Below are positions 7,798 through 34,788 of a stretch of 64,000 nt of DNA, piece after piece. The translations under genes were made by a program, and so were the position numbers. The notes below the pieces were generated by a model. The model was given only the letters and a program-made list of their open reading frames with translations. It had not been told where the DNA came from and did not search any database. The stretch's first letter is position 1. Each line of letters begins with the position of its first letter. The stretch lies in sequence record OQ174503.1; one strand, 5' to 3'. This DNA is from Escherichia phage REP4.

Positions 7798-10700
7798 ATG
7801 GCCGAGATTAAAAGAAAGTTCAGAGCAGAAGACGGTCTGGACGCAGGTGGCGATAAAATAATCAACGTAGCTTTAGCTGATCGTACCGTAGGAACTGACG
7901 GTGTTAACGTTGATTACCTAATTCAAGAAAACACAGTTCAGCAATATGATCCAACTCGTGGATATTTAAAAGATTTTGTAATCATTTATGATAACCGCTT
8001 TTGGGCTGCTATAAATGATATTCCAAAACCGGCAGGAACTTTTAACAGTGGACGCTGGAGAGCATTGCGTACTGATGCTAACTGGATCACAGTCTCATCT
8101 GGTTCATATCAATTAAAATCCGGTGAAGCTATTTCGGTTAACACTGCAGCTGGTAATGATATTACGTTTACTTTACCATCTACTCCAATTGACGGTGATA
8201 CTATCGTTCTCCAAGACATTGGAGGAAAACCTGGGGTTAACCAAGTTTTAATTGTAGCTCCAGTGCAAAGTATTGTAAACTTCAGAGGTGAACAAGTACG
8301 TTCAGTACTAATGACTCATCCAAAGTCACAGTTAGTTTTAATTTTTAGTAATCGCCTGTGGCAAATGTATGTGGCTGATTATAGTAGAGAAGCTGTAGTT
8401 GTAACACCAGCGAATACTTATCAAGCGCAATCCAACGATTTTATCGTACGTAGATTTACTTCTGCTGCACCGATTAATATTAAACTTCCGAGATTTGCTA
8501 ATCACGGCGATATTATTAATTTCGTCGATTTGGATAAATTAAATCCACTTTATCATACAATTGTTACTACATACGATGAAACTACATCAGTACAAGAAGA
8601 TGGAACTCATTCTATTGAAGGCCGTACATCTATTGACGGTTTCTTGATGTATGATGATAATGAAAAATTGTGGAGATTGTTTGACGGAGACAACAAAGCA
8701 CGTTTACGTATCATAACGACTAATTCAAACATTCGTCCAAATGAAGAAGTTATGGTATTTGGTGCGAATAATGGAATAACTCAAACAATTGAACTCCAGC
8801 TTCCAACTAATATTTCTGTTGGTGATACTGTTAAAATTTCCATGAATTACATGAGAAAAGGACAAACAGTTAAAATCAAAGCTGCCGGTGAAGATAAAAT
8901 TGCTTCTTCAGTTCAATTGCTGCAGTTCCCAAAACGTTCAGAATATCCGCCTGAAGCTGAATGGGTAACTGTTCAAGAATTAGTTTTTAACGGTGAAACT
9001 AATTATGTTCCAGTTTTACAACTTGCTTATATAGAAGATTCTGACGGAAAATACTGGGTTGTACAGCAAAACGTTCCAACTGTAGAAAGAGTTGATTCTT
9101 TAAATGATTCTACTAGAGCAAGATTAGGCGTAATTGCTTTAGCTACACAAGCTCAAGCTAATGCTGATTTAGAAAATTCTCCACAAAAAGAATTAGCAAT
9201 TACTCCAGAAACATTAGCTAACCGTACTGCTACAGAAACTCGTAGAGGTATCGCAAGAATAGCAACTACTGCTCAAGTGAATCAGAACACTACATTCTCT
9301 TTTGCTGACGATATTATCATCACTCCTAAAAAGCTGAATGAAAGAACTGCTACAGAAACTCGTAGAGGTGTTGCTGAAATTGCTACGCAGCAGGAAACTA
9401 ATGCAGGTACTGATGATACTACAATCATCACTCCTAAAAAGCTTCAAGCTCGACAAGGTTCTGAGTCATTATCTGGTATTGTAACTTTTGTATCTACTAC
9501 AGGAGCTACTCCAGCTTCTAGTCGTGAATTAAATGGTACAAACGTTTATAATAAAAACACTAATAATTTAGTCGTTTCGCCTAAAGCTTTGGATCAGTAT
9601 AAAGCTACTCCAACGCAACAAGGTGCAGTAATTTTAGCAGTTGAAAGTGAAGTAATTGCTGGACAGAGTCAAGAAGGATGGGCAAATGCTGTTGTAACGC
9701 CAGAAACGTTACATAAAAAGACATCAACTGATGCAAGAATTGGTTTAATTGAAATTGCTACACAAAGTGAAGTTAATACAGGAACTGATTATACTCGTGC
9801 AGTCACTCCTAAAACTTTAAATGACCGTATAGCAACTGAAAGTTTAAGTGGTATAGCTGAAATTGCTACACAAGTTGAATTCGACGCAGGCGTCGACGAT
9901 ACTCGTATCTCTACACCATTAAAAATTAAAACCAGATTTAATAGTACTGATCGTACTTCTGTTGTTGCTCTATCTGGATTAGTTGAATCAGGAACTCTCT
10001 GGGACCATTATACCCTTAATATTCTTGAAGCAAATGAGACACAGCGTGGTACACTTCGTGTAGCTACACAAGTTGAAGCTGCTGCAGGAACATTGGATAA
10101 TGTTTTAATAACTCCTAAAAAGCTTTTAGGTACTAAATCTACTGAAGCACAGGAAGGTGTTATTAAAGTTGCGACTCAGTCTGAAACTGTGGCTGGAACG
10201 TCAGCAAATACTGCTGTATCTCCAAAAAATTTAAAATGGATTGTGCAGAGTGAACCTACTTGGGCAGCTACTACTGCAATAAGAGGCTTTGTTAAAACTT
10301 CATCTGGTTCAATTACATTCGTTGGTAATGATACAGTTGGTTCTACACAGAGCTTAGAGCTATACGAGAAAAATAGCTATGCAGTATCACCATATGAATT
10401 AAACCGTGTATTAGCAAATTATTTGCCGTTAAAAGCAAAAGCTGCTGACGCGAATTTATTAGATGGTCTAGATTCATCTCAGTTCATTCGTAGGGATATT
10501 GCACAGACGGTTAATGGTTCACTAACCTTAACCCAACAAACGAATCTGAATGCCCCTCTTGTATCATCTAGTACTGCTACGTTTGGTGGCTCGTTGGCTG
10601 CTAACTCCACATTTACTATACGTAACACAGGAACTCCGACCCGCATCGTTTTCGAAAAAGGTCCTGCATCCGGTGCAAACCCGGTTCAGTCAATGAGCAT

Positions 10701-11667
10701 CCGTGTATGGGGTAACCAGTATGGTGGCGGTTCAGATACAACACGTTCTACTGTATTTGAAGTTGGCGATGAAACATCTCATCACTTTTATTCTCAGCGT
10801 AATAAAAACGGTACTATAGCGTTTATCATTAATGGTACTGTAATGCCAATAAACATTAATGCTTCCGGTTTGATGAATGTGAATGGCACTGCAACATTTG
10901 GTAGTTCAGTTACAGCCAATGGTGAATTCATCAGCAAGTCTGCAAATGCTTTTAGAGCAATAAGTGGTAATTATGGATTCTTTATTCGCAATGATGCTAC
11001 TAACACCTATTTTATGCTTACTGCATCGGGTGATCAGACTGGCGGATTTAATGGATTACGTCCTTTAGCTATTAACAATGCATCTGGTCAAGTAACGATT
11101 GGTGAAAGCTTAATCATTGCCAAAGGTGCTACTATAAATTCAGGTGGTTTAACTGTTAACTCGAGAATTCGTTCTCAGGGCACTAAAACATCTGACTTAT
11201 ATACCCGTGCACCGACATCTGATACTGTAGGATTCTGGTCAATCGATATTAACGATTCAGCCACTTATAACCAGTTCCCAGGTTATTTTAAAATGGTTGA
11301 AAAAACTAATGAAGTGACTGGACTTCCATACTTAGAACGTGGTGAAGAAGTTAAATCTCCTGGTACATTGACTCAGTTTGGTAACACACTTGATTCACTT
11401 TACCAAGATTGGATTACTTATCCAACAACTCCAGAAGCACGTACAACCCGTTGGACACGTACATGGCAGAAAACTAAAAATTCTTGGTCGAGTTTTGTTC
11501 AGGTATTTGATGGTGGAAACCCTCCTCAACCGTCTGATATCGGTGCTTTACCATCTGATAATGCTACAATGGGGAATCTTACTATTCGTGATTTCTTACG
11601 AATTGGTAATGTTCGCATTATTCCTGACCCAGTGAATAAAACGGTTAAATTTGAATGGGTTGAATAA
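7798..11667 (+). CDS. 34: Long tail fibre proximal subunit gp34, 1289 aa
   Basis: ORF track; size identical to T4 gp34; N-terminus MAEIKRKFRAEDGLDAGGDKIINVALADRTVGTDGVNVDYL; late promoter upstream. Confidence 0.95.
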   Translation: MAEIKRKFRAEDGLDAGGDKIINVALADRTVGTDGVNVDYLIQENTVQQYDPTRGYLKDFVIIYDNRFWAAINDIPKPAGTFNSGRWRALRTDANWITVSSGSYQLKSGEAISVNTAAGNDITFTLPSTPIDGDTIVLQDIGGKPGVNQVLIVAPVQSIVNFRGEQVRSVLMTHPKSQLVLIFSNRLWQMYVADYSREAVVVTPANTYQAQSNDFIVRRFTSAAPINIKLPRFANHGDIINFVDLDKLNPLYHTIVTTYDETTSVQEDGTHSIEGRTSIDGFLMYDDNEKLWRLFDGDNKARLRIITTNSNIRPNEEVMVFGANNGITQTIELQLPTNISVGDTVKISMNYMRKGQTVKIKAAGEDKIASSVQLLQFPKRSEYPPEAEWVTVQELVFNGETNYVPVLQLAYIEDSDGKYWVVQQNVPTVERVDSLNDSTRARLGVIALATQAQANADLENSPQKELAITPETLANRTATETRRGIARIATTAQVNQNTTFSFADDIIITPKKLNERTATETRRGVAEIATQQETNAGTDDTTIITPKKLQARQGSESLSGIVTFVSTTGATPASSRELNGTNVYNKNTNNLVVSPKALDQYKATPTQQGAVILAVESEVIAGQSQEGWANAVVTPETLHKKTSTDARIGLIEIATQSEVNTGTDYTRAVTPKTLNDRIATESLSGIAEIATQVEFDAGVDDTRISTPLKIKTRFNSTDRTSVVALSGLVESGTLWDHYTLNILEANETQRGTLRVATQVEAAAGTLDNVLITPKKLLGTKSTEAQEGVIKVATQSETVAGTSANTAVSPKNLKWIVQSEPTWAATTAIRGFVKTSSGSITFVGNDTVGSTQSLELYEKNSYAVSPYELNRVLANYLPLKAKAADANLLDGLDSSQFIRRDIAQTVNGSLTLTQQTNLNAPLVSSSTATFGGSLAANSTFTIRNTGTPTRIVFEKGPASGANPVQSMSIRVWGNQYGGGSDTTRSTVFEVGDETSHHFYSQRNKNGTIAFIINGTVMPININASGLMNVNGTATFGSSVTANGEFISKSANAFRAISGNYGFFIRNDATNTYFMLTASGDQTGGFNGLRPLAINNASGQVTIGESLIIAKGATINSGGLTVNSRIRSQGTKTSDLYTRAPTSDTVGFWSIDINDSATYNQFPGYFKMVEKTNEVTGLPYLERGEEVKSPGTLTQFGNTLDSLYQDWITYPTTPEARTTRWTRTWQKTKNSWSSFVQVFDGGNPPQPSDIGALPSDNATMGNLTIRDFLRIGNVRIIPDPVNKTVKFEWVE
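9229..10230 (+). repeat. Internal tandem repeat units within gene 34
   Basis: Repeated peptide units (RTATETRRG..IATQ..N.GTDDT.ITPKKL) and exact DNA repeats, e.g. actgctacagaaactcgtagaggt at 9229 and 9349. Confidence 0.75.
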
Positions 11668-11675
11668 GAGGTATT

Positions 11676-12791
11676 ATGGAAAAATTTATGGCAGAGTTTG
11701 GACAAGGATATGTCCAAACGCCATTTTTATCGGAAAGTAATTCAGTAAGATATAAAATAAGCATAGCGGGTTCTTGCCCGCTTTCTACTGCAGGACCATA
11801 CGTTAAATTTCAGGATAATCCTGTTGGAAGTCAAACATTTAGCGCAGGACTTCATTTAAGAGTTTTTGACCCTTCTACAGGAGCATTAGTTGATAGTAAG
11901 TCATATGCTTTTTCTACTTCAAATGATACTACATCAGCGGCTTTTGTTAGTTTCATGAATTCTTTGACGAATAATAGACTTGTTGCTATATTAACTAGTG
12001 GAAAGGTTAATTTTCCTCCTGAAGTGGTGTCTTGGTTAAGAACCGCAGGAACGTCTGCTTTTCCATCTGATTCTATATTGTCAAGATTCGACGTATCATA
12101 TGCTGCTTTTTACACTTCTTCTAAAAGAGCTATTGCATTAGAGCATGTTAAACTAAGTAATAGAAAAAGCACAGATGATTATCAAACTATTTTAGATGTT
12201 GTATTTGACAGTTTAGAAGACGTTGGAGCTACCGGATTTCCAAGAAGAACGTATGAAAGCGTTGATCAATTTATGTCGGCAGTTGGCGGAACTAATAATG
12301 AAATTGCGCGATTGCCAACTTCAGCTGCCATAAGTAAATTATCTGACTATAATTTAATTCCTGGCGATGTTCTTTATCTTAAAGCTCAGTTATATGCTGA
12401 TGCCGATTTACTTGCGCTTGGAACTACAAATATATCTATCCGTTTTTATAATTCATCAAATGGATATATTTCTTCAACACAAGCTGAGTTCACCGGACAA
12501 GCTGGGTCTTGGGAATTAAAGGAAGATTATGTAGTTGTTCCAGAAAACGCTGTGGGATTTACGATATACGCGCAAAGAACTGCACAAGTCGGTCAAGGTG
12601 GCATGAGAAATTTAAGCTTTTCTGAAGTGTCAAGAAATGGAGGTATTTCGAAACCCACTGAATTTGGCGTCAATGGCATTCGTGTTAATTATATCTGTGA
12701 ATCTGCTTCACCTCCGGATATAATGGTACTTCCTACACAAGCATCGTCTAAAACTGGTAAAGTGTTTGGGCAAGAATTTAGAGAAGTATAA
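11676..12791 (+). CDS. 35: Long tail fibre hinge connector gp35, 371 aa
   Basis: ORF track; matches T4 gp35 N-terminus MEKFMAEFGQGYVQTPFLSESNSVRYKISIAGSCPLS. Confidence 0.93.
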   Translation: MEKFMAEFGQGYVQTPFLSESNSVRYKISIAGSCPLSTAGPYVKFQDNPVGSQTFSAGLHLRVFDPSTGALVDSKSYAFSTSNDTTSAAFVSFMNSLTNNRLVAILTSGKVNFPPEVVSWLRTAGTSAFPSDSILSRFDVSYAAFYTSSKRAIALEHVKLSNRKSTDDYQTILDVVFDSLEDVGATGFPRRTYESVDQFMSAVGGTNNEIARLPTSAAISKLSDYNLIPGDVLYLKAQLYADADLLALGTTNISIRFYNSSNGYISSTQAEFTGQAGSWELKEDYVVVPENAVGFTIYAQRTAQVGQGGMRNLSFSEVSRNGGISKPTEFGVNGIRVNYICESASPPDIMVLPTQASSKTGKVFGQEFREV

Positions 12792-12796
12792 ATTGA

Positions 12797-12822
12797 GGGA
12801 GCCTTCGGGTTCCCTTTTTCTT
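12797..12822 (+). terminator. Hairpin GGGAGCC-TTCG-GGTTCCC plus T-run after gene 35
   Basis: GC stem with UUCG tetraloop followed by TTTTTCTTT; immediately precedes the gene 36 late promoter. Confidence 0.7.
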
Positions 12823-12830
12823 TATAAATA
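12823..12830 (+). promoter_or_regulatory. Late promoter box TATAAATA for gene 36
   Basis: Exact TATAAATA 24 nt upstream of gene 36 ATG. Confidence 0.8.
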
Positions 12831-12853
12831 CTATTAAAATAAAGGGGCATACA

Positions 12854-13519
12854 ATGGCTGATTTAAAAGTAGGTTCAACAACTGGAGGCTCTGTCATTTG
12901 GCATCAAGGAAATTTTCCATTGAATCCAGCCGGTGACGATGTACTCTATAAATCATTTAAAATATATTCAGAATACAATAAACCACAAGCTGCTGATAAC
13001 GATTTCGTTTCTAAAGCTAATGGTGGTACTTATGCGTCAAAGGTAACATTTAACAGTGGCGTGCAAATACCATATGCTATAAACAATACAAACCAAAGCG
13101 GTATTTATCCTGGCAATGGTGATGCAGCTACTTTTGCTACAGCAAATATTGATATTGTTTCATGGTATGGTATTGGTTTTAAATCATCACAGGGTTCAGC
13201 AGCCAGAACTGTTGTAATTAATACGCGTAATGGTGATATTAGTACAAAAGGTGTCGTGTCGGCAACTGGTCAAGTAAGAAGTGATGCGACTGCTCCTATA
13301 GCAGCGAATGACCTTACTAGAAAAGACTATGTTGACGGAGCAATAAATACTGTTACGGCAAATGCAGATTCTAGAGTTTTCCGTAAAGGAGACACTATGA
13401 CTGGAAACTTAACCGCACCAAACTTTTTCTCGCAGAATCCTGCATCTCAACCTTCACATGTTCCACGATTTGACCAAATCGTAATTAAGGATTCTGTTCA
13501 AGATTTCGGCTATTATTAA
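12854..13519 (+). CDS. 36: Long tail fibre distal half, small proximal subunit gp36, 221 aa
   Basis: ORF track; size and position as T4 gp36. Confidence 0.92.
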   Translation: MADLKVGSTTGGSVIWHQGNFPLNPAGDDVLYKSFKIYSEYNKPQAADNDFVSKANGGTYASKVTFNSGVQIPYAINNTNQSGIYPGNGDAATFATANIDIVSWYGIGFKSSQGSAARTVVINTRNGDISTKGVVSATGQVRSDATAPIAANDLTRKDYVDGAINTVTANADSRVFRKGDTMTGNLTAPNFFSQNPASQPSHVPRFDQIVIKDSVQDFGYY

Positions 13520-13527
13520 GAGGACTT

Positions 13528-16500
13528 ATGGCTACTTTAAAACAAATACAATTTAAAAGAAGCAAAACCGCAGGTGCACGTCCTGCTGCTTCAGTATTAG
13601 CCGAAGGTGAATTGGCTATAAACTTAAAAGATAGAACAATTTTTACTAAAGACGATTCAGGAAATATCATTGACTTAAGCATTTCTGCTGGCGGTAGTAT
13701 CAGTGGAAATATCACTCAAACTGGCGATTATTTACAAAATGGAACATATAATCTTAATGGAAACCAGTTTGTTTATGCAGGAAAATATATTGAATTTTTA
13801 CCTAAAACTGCTGGTAATGGTGCTTGGGCAAATCAACATAAAAATAAAGCTCCTATCTTTACCGATTTGAGTTCAACGACTTCTACTTCAGAATACCATC
13901 CGCTAATTAAACAACGCTATAAAGATGGAACTTTTTCTGTTGGTACGTTAGTAAACGAAGGTAGTTTTAAAATTCAATATATCAATGAATCTGGTGATTC
14001 AAAATATTGGACTTTTAATCGTAACGGTAGTTTTATTGTAGATAATGGCAGTATTGAAGTCCGTGCAGGTAATATTTCTGCATCAGGCAATATTAACTCG
14101 GCAACTGGATTTGTTTCTGCACCGCGCGTCAATACAAAAAATATTAACCTGAGTTCTAAAACCTTTATACCGAATAATGACACGGGTTATGACATTGTTT
14201 CTTTACCTACTTGGATTTATAATCCACCAGCAGATGGTTCTGACCGTGATACAAACGGATTGAACTACATGCGTAAAATGCGGGCTTCAAATACTTCTAG
14301 CATTTTCCATGAAATAGTTGACTGTCGTTCAGGAAAGCCACAAGAAATTTCTTGGTGGACCGGCGTAGGACCTTCGTCTTTCCAGTGGGCATTTGATACC
14401 TCTGGACGTATTACCGCAGGTAAATCTATTTCAGTAGGTCTTCCTGATAGTGGTACAAATGGCCGTTATCCACTTGATTCTGCAATTTCTATTGGTATTG
14501 CGATTGGCGATAACGATACCGGTATTAAATGGGTCCGCGATGGCGTTTATGACCTGATGGCTAACGGTATTTCATCCGCTACCATTTTGAACAACGGTAT
14601 TAATAGTACTAAAAAATTGATGGTTGGTTATAGCCGTGATTCCGGCTCTACTTGGGATTTCCCAAATAACAACCAAGCAATGTTTACTGCGCGTACCGAT
14701 ATTGATGGTAATAATAACGGCGATGGTCAGACTCATATTGGTTATAGCAGCAATTCTAAAATGTATCACTATTTCCGTGGCACGGGTCGTATGGCTGTCG
14801 GAATGGCTGAAGGTTTAATTGTTGAGCCGGGTATTTTAGATATTAAAACTGGGTCCAATAGAGTTGCTATTAGAGCAGATGGTACATTTGACTCAACCCA
14901 ACGTATTTCAATGCGTACTGGATTATTTTTATCAGGTGATGATAATACCAATGCTTTGTCATTTAAAGCGCCTACAGGTGTTGACGGGACAAAAACCATT
15001 AACTGGGATGCAGGCACTCGTAATGGTCAGAATAAAAATACTGTAACCATTAAAGCGTGGGGTAACTCATTTAACTCAACTCCAGGTAATAGAGAAACTG
15101 TATTCGAAGTTTCAGATTCACAAGGTTATTATTTCTACGCTCAACGTACTAATCCTGCGTCAGGTCAAACAGTAGGTCCTATTAATTTTAAATTTAATGG
15201 TACTGTAGAAACTGGACATATTGTTGGGCTCGGAAATATAAGTGCCTCTGGTACAGGTTCTTTTGGTGGCAATGTTACCATGTCTAATGGTTTGTTTGTC
15301 CAAGGTGGTTCTTCTATTACTGGGCAAGTTAAAATCGGCGGAACATCAGATGCATTAAGAATTTGGAATGCTGAATATGGCGCAATTTTCCGTCGTTCTG
15401 AAGATAAGTTTTATATTATTCCAACTCCGCAGAATGCCGGTGAATCAGGTGGTATTTCTAATTTACGTCCGTTCTATATTACATTAAGTAATGGTAAAGT
15501 TTCCATGGATCATGATGTAGATATCGGCGGCGGTAGATTTAAAGTAGAAGTGGCTGGAACTACGGCTGGTCAACGTATTACAGTTAATGCAAGTAGCGAT
15601 GCTATTAGAATAAATGCTCCAACACAAGAGTCTTCTAACTTCATTCAAGGACGTAAGGCTGATGTGCCTAAATGGTATTTGGGTATTGGTGATGGCGGCA
15701 ATGTCGTTCGTATGCACAGCTACACACATTCACATGGTATTGCATTAAATTCTGATTCTGTCGATATTACTAAGCCTCTTAAAGTCGGCAATGCCCAACT
15801 AGGAACTGACGGTAATATTACCAATGGTTCAGGAAACTTTGCCAACTTAAATACCACGTTAAATCGTAAAGTTAATTCTGGATTTATTACTTATGGAGCA
15901 ACCTCTGGATGGTATAAGTTTGCAACTGTAACAATGCCACAATCCACTTCAACAGTCTTCTTTAAAATAGTTGGAGGTTCTGGATTTAATAGCGGATTAT
16001 TCACCCAATGTAATATTGCTGAAATTGTTTTACGTACTGGTAATGAAAGACCTTCTGACTTAAATGCTGTATTATACACAAGAACAACTGGAATGTATAG
16101 CGCAGCATTTAGAAATATTGCAGTTAACAATGTCTCTGGAAATACATATGACATTTATGTTTATGCTGGAACATATTGTAATCAACTAGTTTGTGAATGG
16201 TCATGTACCGAAAATGCTACTGTTAGCGTTATTGGTATTAACTCATCTACCCAATCACCTGTGGATGCTCTTCCAGATACAGCAGTTGATGGGCAAGTTG
16301 CTAATGTTCTTAATAACTTGGTTGATCGCGGTAAAGTTAAGCGTTATGAAGCCGATTCTGAAATAGCTATTAATAGCCCAACCGGTATTCGTATCAGAAG
16401 CAATGGCGATAAAACTGGTTCTGTTGCTACAATGCTACGAAATGATGGCGGCAGTTTTTATATTCTGTTTACAGATAAAAATGCCACCGATGGCGCAGCA

Positions 16501-17316
16501 ACTGTTAATGGTGATTGGAATAGTAAACGTCCTTTCGCAATTAACTTAACAACCGGCGAAGTGATGATGAATAATGGCATAGCTGTTCGCAGCGCTGCTT
16601 TATTCTATAATAGCATAAACGTCAAAGATAATGGTTCTATTAACTTTGATAAATCAGGTGCTAACCCGAGAAATATGAGAATATTTCATGCTGGCGATGC
16701 TTCTCGCGGTAACCGCATTGAAATTGCAGATGAAACTAACTATATTGCTTACTTTGAAAAGACTCCAGGTGGAGCTAACCGCTTTGTAGTAAATAATGCT
16801 ACTGTAGCTGGTGTTAACCAAATGAATTCATTTGGTATTAATATCAATAACGCACTTGGTGGAAATAGTATAGCATTTGGTGATAATGACACTGGAATTA
16901 AACAATCCGGTGACGGACTTCTTGATATTATTACTAACGCCGCACGCCGAATGAGATTCCAGACAGGTGACACCTATTCTGACATGAATATAAACGCTCC
17001 AAACGTTTATATTCGTTCTGATATTCGTTTGAAATCTAATTTCAGACCTATTGAAAATGCTCTTGAAAAGGTTGAACAGCTTGATGGTTTAATCTATGAT
17101 AAAGCTGACTATATAGGTGGTGAAATTGTTCAGACTGAAGCGGGTATTGTGGCTCAAACACTGCAAGATGTTTTACCAGAAGCAGTTCGTGAAGTTGAAG
17201 ATATTAAAGGTAATAAAATACTCACTGTTTCTTCTCAATCCCAGATTGCTCTTCTAGTTGAAGCTGTGAAAACACTTTCTGCTCGTGTAAAAGAACTTGA
17301 ATCTAAACTTATGTAA
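13528..17316 (+). CDS. 37: Long tail fibre distal subunit gp37 with C-terminal intramolecular chaperone domain, 1262 aa
   Basis: ORF track; N-terminus MATLKQIQFKRSKTAGARPAASVLAEGELAINLKDR typical of gp37; C-terminal SDIRLK...AQTLQDVLPEAV resembles S74-type autoproteolytic chaperone domains. Confidence 0.92.
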   Translation: MATLKQIQFKRSKTAGARPAASVLAEGELAINLKDRTIFTKDDSGNIIDLSISAGGSISGNITQTGDYLQNGTYNLNGNQFVYAGKYIEFLPKTAGNGAWANQHKNKAPIFTDLSSTTSTSEYHPLIKQRYKDGTFSVGTLVNEGSFKIQYINESGDSKYWTFNRNGSFIVDNGSIEVRAGNISASGNINSATGFVSAPRVNTKNINLSSKTFIPNNDTGYDIVSLPTWIYNPPADGSDRDTNGLNYMRKMRASNTSSIFHEIVDCRSGKPQEISWWTGVGPSSFQWAFDTSGRITAGKSISVGLPDSGTNGRYPLDSAISIGIAIGDNDTGIKWVRDGVYDLMANGISSATILNNGINSTKKLMVGYSRDSGSTWDFPNNNQAMFTARTDIDGNNNGDGQTHIGYSSNSKMYHYFRGTGRMAVGMAEGLIVEPGILDIKTGSNRVAIRADGTFDSTQRISMRTGLFLSGDDNTNALSFKAPTGVDGTKTINWDAGTRNGQNKNTVTIKAWGNSFNSTPGNRETVFEVSDSQGYYFYAQRTNPASGQTVGPINFKFNGTVETGHIVGLGNISASGTGSFGGNVTMSNGLFVQGGSSITGQVKIGGTSDALRIWNAEYGAIFRRSEDKFYIIPTPQNAGESGGISNLRPFYITLSNGKVSMDHDVDIGGGRFKVEVAGTTAGQRITVNASSDAIRINAPTQESSNFIQGRKADVPKWYLGIGDGGNVVRMHSYTHSHGIALNSDSVDITKPLKVGNAQLGTDGNITNGSGNFANLNTTLNRKVNSGFITYGATSGWYKFATVTMPQSTSTVFFKIVGGSGFNSGLFTQCNIAEIVLRTGNERPSDLNAVLYTRTTGMYSAAFRNIAVNNVSGNTYDIYVYAGTYCNQLVCEWSCTENATVSVIGINSSTQSPVDALPDTAVDGQVANVLNNLVDRGKVKRYEADSEIAINSPTGIRIRSNGDKTGSVATMLRNDGGSFYILFTDKNATDGAATVNGDWNSKRPFAINLTTGEVMMNNGIAVRSAALFYNSINVKDNGSINFDKSGANPRNMRIFHAGDASRGNRIEIADETNYIAYFEKTPGGANRFVVNNATVAGVNQMNSFGININNALGGNSIAFGDNDTGIKQSGDGLLDIITNAARRMRFQTGDTYSDMNINAPNVYIRSDIRLKSNFRPIENALEKVEQLDGLIYDKADYIGGEIVQTEAGIVAQTLQDVLPEAVREVEDIKGNKILTVSSQSQIALLVEAVKTLSARVKELESKLM
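17017..17313 (+). other. Putative intramolecular chaperone / autoproteolysis domain at gp37 C-terminus
   Basis: Motif S-D-I-R-L-K followed by about 95 helical residues, as in tail-fibre and endosialidase chaperone domains. Confidence 0.6.
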
Positions 17317-17317
17317 A

Positions 17318-17335
17318 AGAGGGCTTCGGCCCTCT
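17318..17335 (+). other. Intergenic RNA hairpin AGAGGGC-TTCG-GCCCTCT between 37 and 38
   Basis: Perfect 7-bp GC stem with UUCG loop directly upstream of the gene 38 SD (AAGGA); no clean U-run, so more likely an attenuator or stability element than a full terminator. Confidence 0.5.
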
Positions 17336-17346
17336 AAGGATTTTTA

Positions 17347-18138
17347 ATGGCAATTGTAGGTGTTCCTGGCTGGATTGGTGAATCTGCCGTGAATGAAACT
17401 GGACAACGTTGGATGGATGCTGCAATGAAAGCAGTTCGTGTTTCAGTTCCTGGTTGGATGAGCTCAATGGCTGGACAATCTAAAGAAGTATATTACAGCA
17501 TTGGTGCTAGCAATTCTTATAATAAAGATACGCTAATAAATTGGATAAAAGCCCAAGGAAGTACTCCTGTTGTTATTACTATTACAGGAAATATTGTTTC
17601 TCAATCTACTGGTGTTCCATGCTTAGATTTTCCTAGCTCATTAACTAATGCATATGTTACCTTAAATATTAATAGTGGGGTTCATGTATTAGGTCGGGGA
17701 GGAAATGGCGGAAGTAACTCTGCTGGTGGAGCAGGAGGAACTGCAATAAATAACGGAATTGGAACTCGTTTAAGAATAAACAATAATGGTATTATTGGTG
17801 GCGGCGGCGGTGGCGGCGCAGGTGCTAGATACAATCCTTTCCCTCAAATGGATATGAAATTTGGTGGCGGCGGAGGTCGTCCATTTGGCGCAGCTGGCGC
17901 AGCAGGAGGTGGCGCAGCTGCAGCATCTGCTGGTACAATTTCTGCTCCCGGTAAAGGCACTGTTTCTGGGGTTCACCATGGAGGAGATGGTGGAGATTTA
18001 GGAGCTGCTGGCAAATCTTCATATATTCAAGGTGGTACTGGAGGAACTATTCACTCGGGTGGCGCAGCAGGTAAAGCTGTTACTGGTAATGCTCCAACTT
18101 GGACTAAAGTTGGTACAATATATGGTGCAAGAGTATAA
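17347..18138 (+). CDS. 38: Tail-fibre adhesin gp38 (T2/T6 type) with glycine-rich motifs, 263 aa
   Basis: ORF track; conserved N-terminal gp37-binding region followed by poly-Gly islands (GGGGGGGAGA, GGGGGRPFGAAGAAGGGAAA, GGDGGDLGAAG, GGTGGTIHSGGAAG) separated by variable segments. Confidence 0.92.
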   Translation: MAIVGVPGWIGESAVNETGQRWMDAAMKAVRVSVPGWMSSMAGQSKEVYYSIGASNSYNKDTLINWIKAQGSTPVVITITGNIVSQSTGVPCLDFPSSLTNAYVTLNINSGVHVLGRGGNGGSNSAGGAGGTAINNGIGTRLRINNNGIIGGGGGGGAGARYNPFPQMDMKFGGGGGRPFGAAGAAGGGAAAASAGTISAPGKGTVSGVHHGGDGGDLGAAGKSSYIQGGTGGTIHSGGAAGKAVTGNAPTWTKVGTIYGARV

Positions 18139-18169: not shown

Positions 18170-18826
18170 ATGGCAGCACCTAGAATATCATTTTCGCCCT
18201 CTGATATTCTGTTGGGTGTTCTAGATCGCTTGTTCAAAGATAACGCTACCGGGAAGGTTCTTGCTTCCCGGGTAGCTGTCGTAATTCTTTTGTTTATAAT
18301 GGCGATTGTTTGGTATAGGGGAGATAGTTTCTTTGAGTACTATAAGCAATCAAAGTATGAAACATACAGTGAAATTATTGAAAAGGAAAGAAATGCACGC
18401 TTTGAATCTGTCGCCCTGGAACAACTCCAGATAGTTCATATATCATCTGAGGCAGACTTTAGTGCGGTGTATTCTTTCCGCCCTAAAAACTTAAACTATT
18501 TTGTTGATATTATAGCATATGAAGGAAGATTACCTTCAACAATAACCGAAAAATCACTTGGAGGATATCCTGTTGATAAAACTATGGATGAATATACAGT
18601 TCATTTAAATGGACGTCATTATTATTCCAACTCAAAATTTGCTTTTTTACCGACTAAAAAGCCTACTCCCGAAATAAATTACATGTACAGTTGTCCATAT
18701 TTTAATTTGGATAATATCTATGCTGGAACAATAACCATGTACTGGTATAGAAATGATCATATAAGTAATGACCGCCTTGAATCAATATGTTCTCAGGCGG
18801 CCAGAATATTAGGAAGGGCTAAATAA
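18170..18826 (+). CDS. t: Holin, 218 aa
   Basis: ORF track; near-identical to T4 holin T (MAAPRISFSPSDIL...VAVVILLFIMAIVWYRGDSFFEYYKQ). Confidence 0.96.
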   Translation: MAAPRISFSPSDILLGVLDRLFKDNATGKVLASRVAVVILLFIMAIVWYRGDSFFEYYKQSKYETYSEIIEKERNARFESVALEQLQIVHISSEADFSAVYSFRPKNLNYFVDIIAYEGRLPSTITEKSLGGYPVDKTMDEYTVHLNGRHYYSNSKFAFLPTKKPTPEINYMYSCPYFNLDNIYAGTITMYWYRNDHISNDRLESICSQAARILGRAK

Positions 18827-29922: not shown

Positions 29923-29952
29923 ATTATACCACATCCTTGTGGTAAAGTAAAC
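29923..29952 (-). promoter_or_regulatory. Early promoter (GTTTAC, 18 nt, TATAAT)
   Basis: Minus-strand GTTTAC at 29947-29952 and TATAAT at 29923-29928. Confidence 0.65.
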
Positions 29953-31769
29953 TACTGGCTCATCCATTCTTTACGAAGGTCAGCATTATCTCCCATGAGC
30001 ATTTCAAAAAGCTCTTTCCAATTCTCAGGAAGTTTAACAACATCATATACTGGATTTTGAATCATCTCACGATATTCAGATTTTTCCAAAGAGCCAAGTC
30101 CTTTAATATAACGGATGCTATGTTTAGGTAGAGCATCTTTGGCACTCTCATATTCAGCGACTGTATAAAACCATTCTTGTTTTTTACCGACCTGAGCGAT
30201 GATTACAGGAGTTTTGACAAAGCGAATTCTTCCTTGTTCAAACAATTCTGGCCAATTACTAAAAAATCCGAGCAGAGAAGGATAAATGCTTCCTAGACCA
30301 TCATGGTCAGCATCAGTCATAATAGCAATATTATGATAATTCAAGTTTTCGGCTTTTTCACCAAGAACTAATCCAGTGATTGCGCAAATATCAAACAGTT
30401 CTTTGTTTTTAAGCATATCAGCATATGACATACCCCAACTGTTGAGAACTTTACCACGCAATGGATAACCGCCATGAAGTTCTTTATCACGAACATCAAT
30501 AAGATATCCGATAGCAGAATCACCCTCAGTCAAGAAAAGAGTAGTGTCAGCATCTTTACCACAAAGATTCGCTTTAATATGTTTATGAACCTTAGCTTTA
30601 GAGGCCTTTTTAGCTGCTTTAGTTTCAGCTGCTTTTTCTGCCGCCAATTTACGAGCCAAGGCAGCTTCAATAATTGGCATTAAAATTGCTTCATTATTCA
30701 AAATAGCACGTGAAATCTTTTTAGCATCAAGCTGAATATGACTACGGATTTCACCAAATGGAGAAGTCAAACGCTCTTTAGTTTGAGAATCAAATCGCAT
30801 GTTTTTCATATCACGAACAAACATAACGATAGTCAAGCATTCTTTAACACGTGCTTTAGTTACATCAATTTTGAATTTACGTTTGATTTGTGGAATAAGG
30901 TCTTCACAAATATCATCCATAACACAGTCAATATGATGGCCACCATTCTTAGTATGAATGTTATTGACGTATGTTAATTGACGAAAACCATCAGGTGAAC
31001 GACCGACCGCAATAGAACAATTTTCTTGTTCTTGAACAATAGCATGTTCATCATATTGGCGTGCATATTTCTTAAAATTACCCTGAACCTTTTTACCATT
31101 AAATGTAAATTGAATATCAGGATAAACTACTGCAAGTGTCTGGAGACGATCCAGTGTAATGTCAAGATAAACTTGAGATAGCTCATTAGTTTCAAATGAC
31201 ATAAAATCAGGAATGAAAGTAACGCGAGTTCCTTTCCATTTTCCAGGAATATCTTCCCACGATTTATTTTCCATGCCGTTTGAACAACGAACTACAATAT
31301 TATTTTGACCATCACCAGTTTCACCGACAAACATCACAGAAAAAATGTTAGTTAAACTAGAACCAACACCGTTCATACCACCAGTGACGCGTTCTTTATC
31401 ATCACCGAAGTTACCACCTGCTTTTGGAATAGTCCATGCAGCAACTGGACCAGGAATTTCTTCACCAGTAGGTGTTTTAACCATCGCCTGCGGAATACCA
31501 CGACCGTTATCTTCAACTGTTACTTGATTGTTTTTAATAGTAACATTAATTTTATTTGCGAATTTAAACTTAGTACGAATACCTTCATCTACTGAGTTAT
31601 CGATAATTTCATCAATAAGCTTAACAAGACCAGGTACATACTGAACACTTTCCCATTTACCAAACAGAAAGCGCTCATGCATTTCATTAGCAGAAGAACC
31701 AATGTACATGCCGCTACGCTTTTTGATATGTTCAATATCGCTCAGAATTTTAATTTCATTCTTAATCAT
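29952..31769 (-). CDS. 39: DNA topoisomerase II large subunit gp39 (GyrB-like ATPase plus TOPRIM), unsplit, 605 aa
   Basis: ORF track start is GTG; ATG one codon downstream (MIKNEIKILSDIEHIKKRSGMYIGSS); single reading frame covers both T4 gp39 and gp60 equivalents. Confidence 0.95.
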   Translation of the reverse strand: MIKNEIKILSDIEHIKKRSGMYIGSSANEMHERFLFGKWESVQYVPGLVKLIDEIIDNSVDEGIRTKFKFANKINVTIKNNQVTVEDNGRGIPQAMVKTPTGEEIPGPVAAWTIPKAGGNFGDDKERVTGGMNGVGSSLTNIFSVMFVGETGDGQNNIVVRCSNGMENKSWEDIPGKWKGTRVTFIPDFMSFETNELSQVYLDITLDRLQTLAVVYPDIQFTFNGKKVQGNFKKYARQYDEHAIVQEQENCSIAVGRSPDGFRQLTYVNNIHTKNGGHHIDCVMDDICEDLIPQIKRKFKIDVTKARVKECLTIVMFVRDMKNMRFDSQTKERLTSPFGEIRSHIQLDAKKISRAILNNEAILMPIIEAALARKLAAEKAAETKAAKKASKAKVHKHIKANLCGKDADTTLFLTEGDSAIGYLIDVRDKELHGGYPLRGKVLNSWGMSYADMLKNKELFDICAITGLVLGEKAENLNYHNIAIMTDADHDGLGSIYPSLLGFFSNWPELFEQGRIRFVKTPVIIAQVGKKQEWFYTVAEYESAKDALPKHSIRYIKGLGSLEKSEYREMIQNPVYDVVKLPENWKELFEMLMGDNADLRKEWMSQ

Positions 31770-31810
31770 CACTTATCCTCGTTTGGTTTCGGGAATATTA
31801 TACTCCGGTA

Positions 31811-31838
31811 ATCATAAAGCTAAAGGCCCGAAGGCCTT
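31811..31838 (-). terminator. Hairpin AAGGCC-TTCG-GGCCTT plus U-rich tail
   Basis: GC stem immediately after the lipoprotein stop codon. Confidence 0.65.
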
Positions 31839-32099
31839 TTATTTAAAACGGATAGTCGAATCCTTGAAGAAAAGACCAGAACATACTGTTCCTTCTACTT
31901 TCTGCCCGGTAGGTCCAATAGCACGAAATCCAGTATGTTGGAAATCATTTTCAGAGCAACCGAACCAATTATATCCAGTGATTTCAATATTAGTAAAACC
32001 ACTTGAAGACAGAACTTTGGTTGCATTATCAGCATCAGTACATCCTACTAAAGATACTGCTAATACTATTGCCGCGATAGAACGATTAACATATTTCAT
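31839..32099 (-). CDS. Putative lipoprotein, 86 aa (39.1 position)
   Basis: ORF track start is TTG; ATG at MKYVNRSIAAIVLAVSLVGC with lipobox L-V-G-C; mature part has two further Cys. Confidence 0.65.
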   Translation of the reverse strand: MKYVNRSIAAIVLAVSLVGCTDADNATKVLSSSGFTNIEITGYNWFGCSENDFQHTGFRAIGPTGQKVEGTVCSGLFFKDSTIRFK

Positions 32100-32103
32100 A
32101 ATT

Positions 32104-32475
32104 TCACTCAAATTTAATGGCTTGAAGAAGACTAATAATTCTCAAGCGACTTCTTTCATCTTTAACTGTAAAAGAAAGAGGGTCGCCAGATTTCATAGTG
32201 ATAGTGCATTCAAAATCAAAATCTTCGGAAACTTCTTTGAAGAAGTCAAATTCTTCATCATAAATTAGAACACTACTCCGCAGACTATGAAGAACTTTTC
32301 CATCATTTCCAGATGCTGTACTAATCATTGTAACATTATGACCTTTCATATCTTCAACGATAAATTCACTAGTCAATATTACAGCATTAATAGAACTATT
32401 CCTATTACTAGCAGAAAGTAGATATTTCTGTTCTTCACCTTCACGAATGCGATATTTCTTACCAATTTTAAACAT
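32104..32475 (-). CDS. Hypothetical 123-aa protein
   Basis: ORF track; ATG start. Confidence 0.6.
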   Translation of the reverse strand: MFKIGKKYRIREGEEQKYLLSASNRNSSINAVILTSEFIVEDMKGHNVTMISTASGNDGKVLHSLRSSVLIYDEEFDFFKEVSEDFDFECTITMKSGDPLSFTVKDERSRLRIISLLQAIKFE

Positions 32476-32477
32476 AA

Positions 32478-32654
32478 TTACCCTTTAAGTAAGTCGTAAA
32501 AACCACCATTCACATGCTTAGGAGCAGAAGGCCGACGAGTAGACAAACGATGACATTTAGGGCAAACATCATTTTCTCGTTCAGAAATTTTTTTAATTTT
32601 TTCATATTCATGCCCGCAATCTTCAGATTGGCATTTATAATCATACATTGGCAT
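32478..32654 (-). CDS. Putative zinc-ribbon mini-protein, 58 aa (not in ORF track)
   Basis: Manual translation MPMYDYKCQSEDCGHEYEKIKKISERENDVCPKCHRLSTRRPSAPKHVNGGFYDLLKG; C-x4-C ... C-x2-C; fits exactly between flanking ORFs. Confidence 0.55.
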   Translation of the reverse strand: MPMYDYKCQSEDCGHEYEKIKKISERENDVCPKCHRLSTRRPSAPKHVNGGFYDLLKG

Positions 32655-32656
32655 AA

Positions 32657-33076
32657 TTATTCCTTAAAGTGTGCTTTCAACATCTGATACAAGGACCATG
32701 CCTGCTCATTATTTTCAATAATAACTTTCATGACAGGAAATTCGGTGAAATCTTCTATTTGTTCTTGCTCTTCCTGCTCTTGCTCTTCAGCTGCCTGATA
32801 TGGATTTTCCACTTCATCAAAGAACCCAGCTTCACTTTTTGAAAGCCAAATAAAGTCTTCATCCAAAACATCTTTGCCAGAAGATAGTACTAAATTTCCA
32901 GTAGATGACAAAATTTTAATAGGACGCCCAAGAGCGTCCACATCTAAAATTTTAAAAGGATACATACCTAAACGTCGCGCATAAATTCCGTTATCAGTAT
33001 GGTCTTTAATAAAATTTTCTTGAGCTTGTTTATTTTTAAATTGATACCATTTATTAACTTCAAATTTAATAGCCAT
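32657..33076 (-). CDS. Hypothetical 139-aa protein with acidic [10 protein letters not shown] tract (goF position by size)
   Basis: ORF track; ATG start. Confidence 0.6.
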
Positions 33077-33291
33077 TAATAAATTTCCTTCCAGTAAGTT
33101 GTGCCATCCTCAGTAATTTCACGAAATACACCGTAAATTGGTTGTTTATCACCAACCTTTTCATACACATAAACCGAAGTCAAGTGAGTAAACTTAACGG
33201 TATGTTCCTTTTGAACCACTACCAAATCTGGATCGAATAATACATCTTCAAATTCGTCATTAGTGCAGTTCTGAACAATTTTACGTTTCAT
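33076..33291 (-). CDS. Hypothetical 71-aa protein (cef position by size)
   Basis: ORF track; ATG overlaps downstream gene. Confidence 0.55.
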
Positions 33292-33304
33292 TACAATTTC
33301 CTCA

Positions 33305-33574
33305 TTAATTGAACAGTGGAGCGATGCGTTTCAGAAGAGTAGCAGCACCTTTGGCAAATTTTACATCATGAAAAACAGTTTCTTCTTCCGTTACAACACG
33401 AACTTTAATATTTTCACAATCCCAATTTTTACGAACAATCTTCAAAAGCTGCAGTAAATCTTTACATTCAGCAATATCGATAACACATCCACGAGAATCT
33501 TCCATTATCGCACGATAACCGTAAGCCAGACCATAATCGTTGAAAGATTGCTCGATGATAATTAAGTTTTCCAT
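33305..33574 (-). CDS. Hypothetical 89-aa protein
   Basis: ORF track start is TTG; ATG at MENLIIIEQSF. Confidence 0.55.
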   Translation of the reverse strand: MENLIIIEQSFNDYGLAYGYRAIMEDSRGCVIDIAECKDLLQLLKIVRKNWDCENIKVRVVTEEETVFHDVKFAKGAATLLKRIAPLFN

Positions 33575-33671: not shown

Positions 33672-34169
33672 TTATGCACAGCGAGCTTTGCTATAGTGTT
33701 TAATCCAACTTTCAGGAATGACTTTGTATGTTCCTAAAAATACCGCGTTGTACAACTTAACGCCATCTTCTACCCATTGATCGGTAATGTATGCACACAT
33801 AGCACGAGTACGATGTTTTTGAACAATCCCTTCCTCATCTTCGGTAAATTCGAATTCATAAGGAGCAACGAACTTAATAGCCTGACCGAGTTTCCACTTA
33901 AAGTCTACACCTACATGCGAAGTATCAATCGTTTCAATTCCTTTAGCAGGAACAGCTTTCAAAAACGCAGACTCAAGAAATTTCGCACGAACATAGCCAA
34001 ACTGAGGTTTAGACTTTCCATCTTTAGGAATGATACGCACTTTTACTTCAGAATCTTCATCTTTAACGCCATGTTTAAGCTGAATGCTTACAATTTCGAC
34101 CAATTTTCCTGCTGCTTTAGAACGGGATTTATCAGATACACGAGCTAATTCACCAATATTAATAATCAT
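33672..34169 (-). CDS. Hypothetical 165-aa protein (motB position); paralog of 34246..34788
   Basis: ORF track; own early promoter; C-terminal motif AYITDQWVEDGVKLYNAVFLGTYKVIPES shared with neighbour. Confidence 0.65.
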   Translation of the reverse strand: MIINIGELARVSDKSRSKAAGKLVEIVSIQLKHGVKDEDSEVKVRIIPKDGKSKPQFGYVRAKFLESAFLKAVPAKGIETIDTSHVGVDFKWKLGQAIKFVAPYEFEFTEDEEGIVQKHRTRAMCAYITDQWVEDGVKLYNAVFLGTYKVIPESWIKHYSKARCA

Positions 34170-34245: not shown

Positions 34246-34788
34246 TTAATTTAAAATAGCTACCACCGCACTACGAGGTACTACACTAAAATCACCTGCA
34301 TGAACAACGTTCAGAAGTTCAACACCATCTTCAATCCACTGGTCTGTTACCCAACCACAGACCGAAATAAATGGAGTCTTGATAGCTACAGCACGAGTTA
34401 GAAGGTCTGTAGGGTCTTGTTCTTCAACTTCTTGGAACAGGATGAACTCTGCCTCATAAACCAGGATTTTCTCTATTTTGTTATTGTCTAAACGACGACC
34501 GTGGACAATATAAGATTTAGTAAACCATTTACTTTTTTCAAAGTCTTCAACAGTAAATTCGCCTTCACCAAAAACATCAGTCAGAGTTTTATGGCCGGAA
34601 ATCAAGGCATTAGTTTTAATTTCAGGTTCAACCAGTTTGTAGGTTTTGCCGATTTCAATAGCGGTAGTCATAGTAGGTTCCTTAATTTCCAATGGTTTAA
34701 CAGGGCATACATAAGTGCTTACAACATCAAAATCAATCAGTTTAGCTACTGGATTTGGTGTGTATTCAGGATTATAATTAAATTTCAT
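34246..34788 (-). CDS. Hypothetical 180-aa protein; paralog of 33672..34169
   Basis: ORF track; C-terminal motif CGWVTDQWIEDGVELLNVVHAGDFSVVPRS. Confidence 0.65.
   Translation of the reverse strand: MKFNYNPEYTPNPVAKLIDFDVVSTYVCPVKPLEIKEPTMTTAIEIGKTYKLVEPEIKTNALISGHKTLTDVFGEGEFTVEDFEKSKWFTKSYIVHGRRLDNNKIEKILVYEAEFILFQEVEEQDPTDLLTRAVAIKTPFISVCGWVTDQWIEDGVELLNVVHAGDFSVVPRSAVVAILN

Follow-up and report, generated by a model that had tools for sequence, protein, structure and literature searches.

What does a small lipoprotein encoded beside a topoisomerase gene do for a T-even phage? T4 is the best-studied lytic phage, yet the product of its gene 39.1, although expressed, is without a Pfam or NCBIfam model and appears in the reference sequence, wrongly, as a truncated product of 7.2 kDa. 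The relatives of this protein fall into more than 2,000 sequence clusters and occur in over 1,000 phages of known sequence. We analysed gene 39.1 and its neighbours in a stretch of 64,000 nucleotides of Escherichia phage REP4 (OQ174503.1), in the following called the window, for which an earlier note had suggested blocking of an outer-membrane receptor by the lipoprotein. Both 39.1 and the nearby gene 39.2 had been annotated before, as 'lipoprotein' in UniRef and some GenBank records and as 'FmdB-like' in RefSeq, respectively. New are the size of the 39.1 family and its restriction to phages, its structural class, the case against blocking of the phage's own receptor, and a probable error of the T4 reference at both genes.

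Organization of the 39.1/39.2 locus

The window is a segment of a Tequatrovirus genome. A 1.6-kb query around 39.1 and 39.2 matches 559 phage records, the best of them at 96–97% identity, and the order of genes equals that of RB18, T2 and T6. The genes of the 39.1/39.2 stretch are all located on the (-) strand and are transcribed from high to low coordinates. The following features were mapped:

33291..33076, (-) strand: cef
33076..32657, (-) strand: goF (comC-alpha), 139 aa; phrog_622 at 5.7e-38; annotated goF in RB18, T2 and T6
32654..32478, (-) strand: gene 39.2, 58-aa FmdB-family zinc ribbon; PF09723 and TIGR02605 above cut-off
32475..32104, (-) strand: 123-aa ORF, related to goF/Frd.2 at the profile level; phrog_622 at 2.6e-29
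32099..31839, (-) strand: gene 39.1, 86-aa prolipoprotein; ORF, translation, phrog_902, orthologues annotated gp39.1
31839..31822, (-) strand: UUCG hairpin; sequence and minimum-free-energy fold
31820..31797, (-) strand: T4 middle-promoter-like site for gene 39; sequence
31769/31772..29952, (-) strand: topoisomerase gene 39, 605–606 aa, then rIIA.1 and rIIA

The genes goF, 39.2, the 123-aa ORF and 39.1 form a tightly packed string with spacers of 2–4 nt (TAATTATG twice, TGAAATTATG once). goF is the upstream gene of this string, and the ATG of 39.2 lies 2 nt past its stop codon. The placement in the 39-dexA accessory stretch given in the earlier note holds. That note had listed two ORFs downstream of gene 39; both are real, but in the direction of transcription they lie upstream of it, and the 123-aa ORF between them had been omitted. 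No Rfam family was found in 31500–33400, and PADLOC gave no hit. Gene 39 itself is unsplit, lacking both the gene 60/mobA insertion and the T4 translational-bypass element, which makes the phage T2/T6/RB18-type in the gene 39 region. The same window also contains the tail-fibre module gp34–38 (7798–18138) and holin gene t (18170–18826).

Directly 3' of the 39.1 stop codon we found the 18-nt hairpin AAAGGCC-UUCG-GGCCUUU, which begins on the final base of that codon and is followed by AGCUUUAU. It is included in the minimum-free-energy fold, with a modest z-score of -1.64 for the 61-nt stretch, and was not called in a simple consensus terminator scan. The earlier note had spoken of the lipoprotein's own terminator. 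This is a reasonable wording for a hairpin that is predicted to be terminator-like or mRNA-stabilising and that is annotated as a rho-independent terminator in record MZ726795. Past the hairpin lies a promoter-like site, read from the sequence as GCTT (31820..31817), a 14-nt spacer and TATAAT (31802..31797); MZ726795 annotates this site as 'T4 middle promoter GCTT(N13-15)TATAAT'. Both the hairpin and the promoter-like site are identical in T4. We propose that goF, 39.2, the 123-aa ORF and 39.1 would form an early T-even string closed by the UUCG hairpin, and that gene 39 would restart past it from its own middle-type promoter.

39.1 encodes a predicted outer-membrane lipoprotein

The description of 39.1 as an 86-aa lipoprotein with the lipobox LVGC and two more cysteines was confirmed. 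The ORF runs from an ATG at 32099 to a stop at 31839; a longer mechanical ORF starting at a TTG at 32111 would comprise 90 aa, and it is the 86-aa form that is annotated in RB18, T2 and T6. The N-terminus MKYVNR / SIAAIVLAVS / LVGC20 has a basic n-region (K2, R6) and a hydrophobic core of 12 residues. Signal peptide and lipobox occupy 32099..32043, and the mature protein of 67 aa (32042..31842) begins with C-T-D and contains the further cysteines C48 and C73. With its charged n-region, h-region and lipobox the precursor shows the substrate pattern of signal peptidase II, the lipobox being of the form [LVI][ASTVI][GAS]C. We have high confidence in the reality of the gene and in the anatomy of the precursor. 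The protein matches phrog_902 at 3e-37, which is the only PHROG matched and has no assigned function; Pfam, NCBIfam and PADLOC contained no matching model. A literature search on gp39.1, 39.1/39.2 and T-even phage lipoproteins returned no functional study.

Features of the family were counted in a sample of 263 members. A strict lipobox is present in 223, and most of the others have a relaxed one. In 200 of the 223 strict-lipobox members the lipid-Cys is located exactly 36 residues ahead of a TGF motif. In enterobacteria Asp at position +2 leads to Lol avoidance, and lipoproteins with other residues are exported to the outer membrane. Position +2 is Thr in 39.1 of the window; in these 223 proteins it is Thr in 186 and Ser in 22, and it is never Asp, so that export to the outer membrane is predicted. 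Lipidation and an outer-membrane location of 39.1 are predicted from its sequence features. Both further cysteines are present in 248 of the 263 members and both are absent from 7; in no member is the second lost while the first is kept (Fisher p = 4e-10). Such co-variation is a disulfide signature and suggests a periplasmic protein, with a putative C48–C73 disulfide in 39.1. The near-invariant residues of the family comprise a core set (L11, G15, G23, F39, A41, G51, V53) and a polar set (D33, T37, K60, T63, R65).

About ten members have a transmembrane or prepilin-like anchor in place of the lipobox. Of the unusual proteins P0155, P0102 and P0094, one begins with a prepilin-like N-terminus (…GFTLVEMLIV…), another carries the domain twice in tandem, and in another a linker of about 20 residues separates the lipid-Cys from the domain. 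We also considered the C-terminal ...TIRF as an outer-membrane beta-signal or a DegS-activating tail and rejected both, most members having at least one residue past the aromatic one.

39.1 and 39.2 are intact in resequenced T4 genomes

In the T4 reference (NC_000866/AF158101) 39.1 appears as an ORF of 65 aa with the lipobox altered to LINS and a one-base insertion, and 39.2 as one of 45 aa. We compared NC_000866 (L003, 5380–5860) with KJ477686 (L017, 700–1180). Over these 481 bp identity to the reference is only 97.1% for T4T, T4 wild, 147, GT7 and several later T4 genomes, and at least 10 resequenced T4 genomes carry an intact 86-aa 39.1 (lipobox LIGC) together with an intact 58-aa 39.2. They depart from the reference at 14 clustered positions, by G/A swaps and single-base indels as are typical of old gel reads. 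The reference goes back at this place to the older records M89919 and X06220, so that the truncations are likely to stem from sequencing error. Judged by these sequence comparisons, the shortened genes are probably an old error that was carried into UniProt as '7.2 kDa' and '5.1 kDa' proteins, and an assignment of the T4 genes as pseudogenes was rejected in view of the intact resequenced copies.

The same data bear on the idea that 39.1 and 39.2 are decaying remnants without function, as the broken lipobox and the frameshifts in both genes of NC_000866, and the lack of 39.1 in RB69, might suggest. Against it stand the resequenced T4 genomes, intact in both genes, the very large 39.1 family with its conserved residues, and the detection of the 39.1 protein in T4 infection; we regard this idea as having next to no chance of being correct. 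Time-resolved omics of T4 infection place 39.1 in an early-RNA/late-protein class, i.e. the protein is detected, and for 39.2 report early RNA with the protein not detected (PMC9697503, supplementary files 4 and 6).

Distribution of the 39.1 family

A first homology search with 39.1 yielded 49 clusters, all from T4-like phages. In a profile search against 1.84 billion representatives the family grew to 2,224 clusters at E ≤ 1e-3 and 1,120 at E ≤ 1e-10; look-ups of these clusters returned no names. By tblastn 39.1 was found in 1,068 phage records. The carriers belong to many genera of Straboviridae on Escherichia, Klebsiella, Enterobacter, Serratia, Citrobacter, Cronobacter, Yersinia, Aeromonas and others, with weaker matches in Stenotrophomonas phage Marzo, Sinorhizobium phiM12, Serratia phiMAM1 and Rhizobium RHph_X66, and a structure search of BFVD added Agrobacterium Atu_ph07. 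Overall the family reaches phages of Enterobacterales, Aeromonas, Stenotrophomonas, Rhizobia and Burkholderiales.

Outside phages 39.1 is essentially absent. No DNA match was found in 5,426 complete E. coli genomes, and plasmids gave three hits. Among one genome each of 185,579 species 14 loci of the family were detected, one in an isolate and the others on MAG contigs. The isolate copy belongs to a prophage of Pandoraea morbifera (L004, 4859–9686) with a lambdoid-type early region, where it is located downstream of a cI-like repressor (HTH_3 + Peptidase_S24) on the same strand and before rdgC. Such a position is often occupied by exclusion or moron genes in temperate phages. On metagenomic phage contigs 39.1 is found amid small early or recombination genes (ERF, Sipho_Gp157, DpdA) or in a T4-like replication region.

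Each genome carries one copy: no paralogue was found in the window or beside the distant homologues, and no conserved partner gene was found across the loci. In RB69 (NC_004928, 2048–2652) the goF-like ORF005c and 39.2 are present and 39.1 is missing between ORF005c and gene 39, which shows the lipoprotein to be a variable accessory gene even within Tevenvirinae.

Predicted structure of the mature 39.1 domain

An AF2 model of the mature domain, based on an alignment of 104 sequences, reached a pLDDT of 86.8 and a pTM of 0.72. The modelled fold consists of a helix (4–13) followed by strands at 17–24, 35–42, 48–55 and 62–66. Since the helix begins three residues past the lipid-Cys, the domain should sit against the membrane. 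Judged by the alternation along the strand, T63 and R65 are predicted to face away from the helix, which would fit a conserved binding surface.

No sequence relative of 39.1 was found in the PDB. A Foldseek search of the PDB with the full-length model gave nothing (best E 2.4), the signal helix probably disturbing the model, and the BFVD search returned only uncharacterised members of the 39.1 family itself. At the level of fold class the domain resembles cystatins, PepSY domains (YpmB, YpeB), VirB8 (NTF2-like) and the colicin M immunity protein Cmi (2XGL). Identity to these proteins is however only 5–16%, and the motifs that define their families are absent or not conserved. Cystatins contact the protease through a hairpin loop with a conserved QxVxG. 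Membership in the cystatins was rejected: the T-even copies contain QKVEG, but position 47 is variable in the family, its commonest residue being K at 25%.

39.1 is probably not an own-receptor blocker

Known precedents for a small phage lipoprotein at the periplasmic side of the outer membrane prevent adsorption to the receptor of their own phage. In such phages the gene for the exclusion lipoprotein adjoins that of the receptor-binding protein. In the window 39.1 lies 14 kb away from gp37/gp38 (13528–18138). T2 uses FadL/OmpF and T4 uses OmpC/LPS as receptors. For T6 the receptor is Tsx, and phages with a T2/T6-like gp38 use OmpA, OmpF or Tsx (PMC12032242). REP4, T2 and T4 share the same mature 39.1 protein, from which that of T6 deviates at a single residue. 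Identity of the gp38 adhesin, on the other hand, is 62% between the window and T2, 54% between the window and T6 and 49% between T2 and T6; gp38 of the window (17347–18138, + strand) shares 99.2% identity with its counterparts in RB18 and vB_EcoM-UFV13.

We also compared 39.1 with known exclusion proteins. Llp and Rtp45 bind the periplasmic side of their phage's own receptor, FhuA and LptDE, respectively (PMC12685063). In a profile comparison by hhalign, for which the Llp sequence was confirmed against PDB 8A60 and 7QJF, only the signal peptide of 39.1 aligned with Llp. The annotated exclusion families in PHROGs and Pfam gave no match to 39.1, and no Llp hit appeared in the structure searches.

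T5 Llp (7QJF, 8A60) is, as predicted for 39.1, a small early phage lipoprotein in the inner leaflet of the outer membrane, with a mature, disulfide-stabilised domain of about 60 residues on a short tether. The Rtp45/Oekolampad lipoproteins are likewise phage lipoproteins of about 6 kDa at the periplasmic interface of the outer membrane, and they illustrate that an essential and conserved outer-membrane machine, LptDE, can be the target (PMC12685063). They differ from 39.1 in acting on their own receptor and in belonging to small siphophages, and homology was not detected, phrog_902 being the only match of 39.1. A lipoprotein of the Llp/Cor/Rtp45 type would bind the phage's own receptor from the periplasmic side, thereby preventing adsorption to infected cells and debris. 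Such a role would agree with 39.1 being small, early, disulfide-containing and held on a short tether, as are Llp on FhuA and Rtp45 on LptDE (PMC12685063; PMC9586334), and the late accumulation of the 39.1 protein in T4 infection would suit a masking of debris. It is difficult to reconcile with a mature protein that differs by at most one residue across T2, T4, T6 and REP4 while gp38 identity is 49–62%, with the 14 kb to gp37/38, with an hhalign alignment to Llp that covers the signal peptide only, and with a family that spans phages of very diverse hosts and has strongly conserved exposed residues. The constancy of 39.1 against a varying gp38, its distance from gp37/38 and the missing similarity to Llp lead us to conclude that it is not an own-receptor blocker of the Llp type. 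The receptor-blocking role proposed in the earlier note is accordingly disfavoured, and we consider it quite improbable. It is possible that 39.1 blocks some other outer-membrane component, one that is conserved among hosts.

A candidate role of 39.1 at the cell envelope

In the reading that we favour, with a probability of roughly 0.4, 39.1 binds a host-conserved periplasmic or outer-membrane component and protects the infected cell at the level of the envelope. The lipoprotein would reside in the inner leaflet of the outer membrane, facing the periplasm, and would display a disulfide-locked domain of 64 residues (a helix and a four-stranded sheet) about three residues away from the lipid anchor. 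This domain would act as a binding or inhibitor module on a host-conserved component at the periplasmic face of the outer membrane rather than on the phage's own receptor. Its effect may be receptor-independent exclusion of incoming phages or the neutralisation of a periplasmic or outer-membrane enzyme. Both the target and the phenotype are inferred. The more far-reaching proposal, that the whole family is a widespread receptor-independent envelope weapon docking on a conserved machine or enzyme such as LptDE, BamA or a peptidoglycan hydrolase, appears unlikely to us as it stands. If true, later invaders would be shut out or the envelope of the infected cell stabilised, and T4 would possess in 39.1, next to Imm and Spackle, a third and hitherto unrecognised factor for exclusion or protection. 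A periplasmic target conserved from Enterobacteria to Rhizobia would be of interest for phage–phage competition, for the design of therapy cocktails and as a probe of the outer membrane. If no phenotype is found, 39.1 stays an ordinary accessory gene.

Spackle (gp61.3) is an early periplasmic protein of T-even phages that inhibits the gp5 tail lysozyme. As proposed here for 39.1, it is an early, periplasmic T-even protein whose protection of the infected cell does not depend on the receptor. Unlike 39.1 it is soluble and helical and not a lipoprotein; no sequence relation between the two was found, and the function of Spackle is demonstrated while that of 39.1 is only proposed. By analogy with Spackle and the gp5 lysozyme, and with Cmi and colicin M, 39.1 might be an immunity protein or inhibitor of an enzyme acting in the periplasm, such as a bacteriocin or a protease or peptidoglycan hydrolase that belongs to the host or to an incoming phage. 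The predicted periplasmic location of the disulfide-stabilised domain, its conserved exposed D/K/T/R residues and the helix-on-sheet resemblance to cystatins, PepSY (YpmB, YpeB) and Cmi would agree with this version, which derives from fold class only and which we rate as rather unlikely.

A part in lysis control or in disruption of the outer membrane, as a spanin or holin accessory or in lysis inhibition, was considered as well, since o-spanins are the best-known class of phage outer-membrane lipoproteins and the 39.1 protein falls into a 'late' class in T4 proteomics. The transcript, however, is early, and 39.1 lies far from the lysis genes (t at 18170–18826, placed as annotated in T2/T6). 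No i-spanin adjoins it, and it is flanked by the goF-like ORF and topoisomerase gene 39; the model shows, with confidence, a globular domain and not a proline-rich linker, and in other phages 39.1 is located amid early or recombination genes. A lysis role is thus very improbable. Membership in the o-spanins of the Rz1/PseT.2 type was rejected on account of the missing i-spanin or lysis cassette, the globular domain and the early transcript.

The 39.2 zinc ribbon and the 123-aa ORF

Gene 39.2 had been described as a 58-aa zinc ribbon of the form C-x4-C...C-x2-C. We found the ORF at 32654..32478 on the (-) strand, and it scores above both curated cut-offs: 45.7 bits against 34.4 for Pfam PF09723 (Zn_ribbon_8, 6.7e-12) and 44.9 bits against 31.3 for TIGR02605 (8.7e-12). 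The matches of 39.1 and 39.2 are far beyond chance. The protein begins with MPMYDYKC, and the predicted zinc ligands are C8-x4-C13 and C31-x2-C34. It is 100% identical to 39.2 of T2 and 79% identical to that of T6, and in RB69, too, 39.2 adjoins goF. With the FmdB family (PF09723; TIGR02605 CxxC_CxxC_SSSS) it shares the N-terminal MPxYxYxC and two Cys pairs, but it deviates in the first pair, C-x4-C in place of C-x2-C, and in a C-terminal tail, PKHVNGGFYDLLKG, that only T-even phages have. RefSeq labels 39.2 of T4 and RB69 'FmdB-like transcriptional regulator', where 'regulator' is a putative label for the FmdB family and 39.2 alike. No sequence relative was found in the PDB and no functional study of 39.2 in the literature.

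The 123-aa ORF shows a weak match to Pfam FRD2 (E 0.078). It is annotated in RB18, T2, T6 and RB69 (RB69ORF005c / RB32ORF005c type) and is exactly absent from T4. BLASTP gave no pairwise similarity between goF and this ORF, the shared phrog_622 profile being the sole link. GoF, MotB.1 and Frd.2 have been proposed as LSm-like RNA-associated proteins (PMC12152347), and by its profile match the 123-aa ORF is probably another member of this family. The position of 39.2 between two LSm-like genes of the GoF family suggests an accessory role in binding of nucleic acid or protein. We read 39.2 as a cytoplasmic zinc ribbon of the FmdB type; that it is accessory in early mRNA metabolism is a plausible guess on weak grounds.

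In the motB region of the window an ORF of 180 aa lies upstream of motB; the coordinates are 34246–34788 (-) and 33672–34169 (-). In phage W143 its equivalent is named 'adenylribosylating enzyme', a label that looks unsupported. The C-terminal segment of the 180-aa ORF resembles the C-terminus of MotB (…TDQWIEDGVELLNVV… vs …TDQWVEDGVKLYNAV…), and the T6 annotation for its counterpart reads 'C-terminus similar to motB'.
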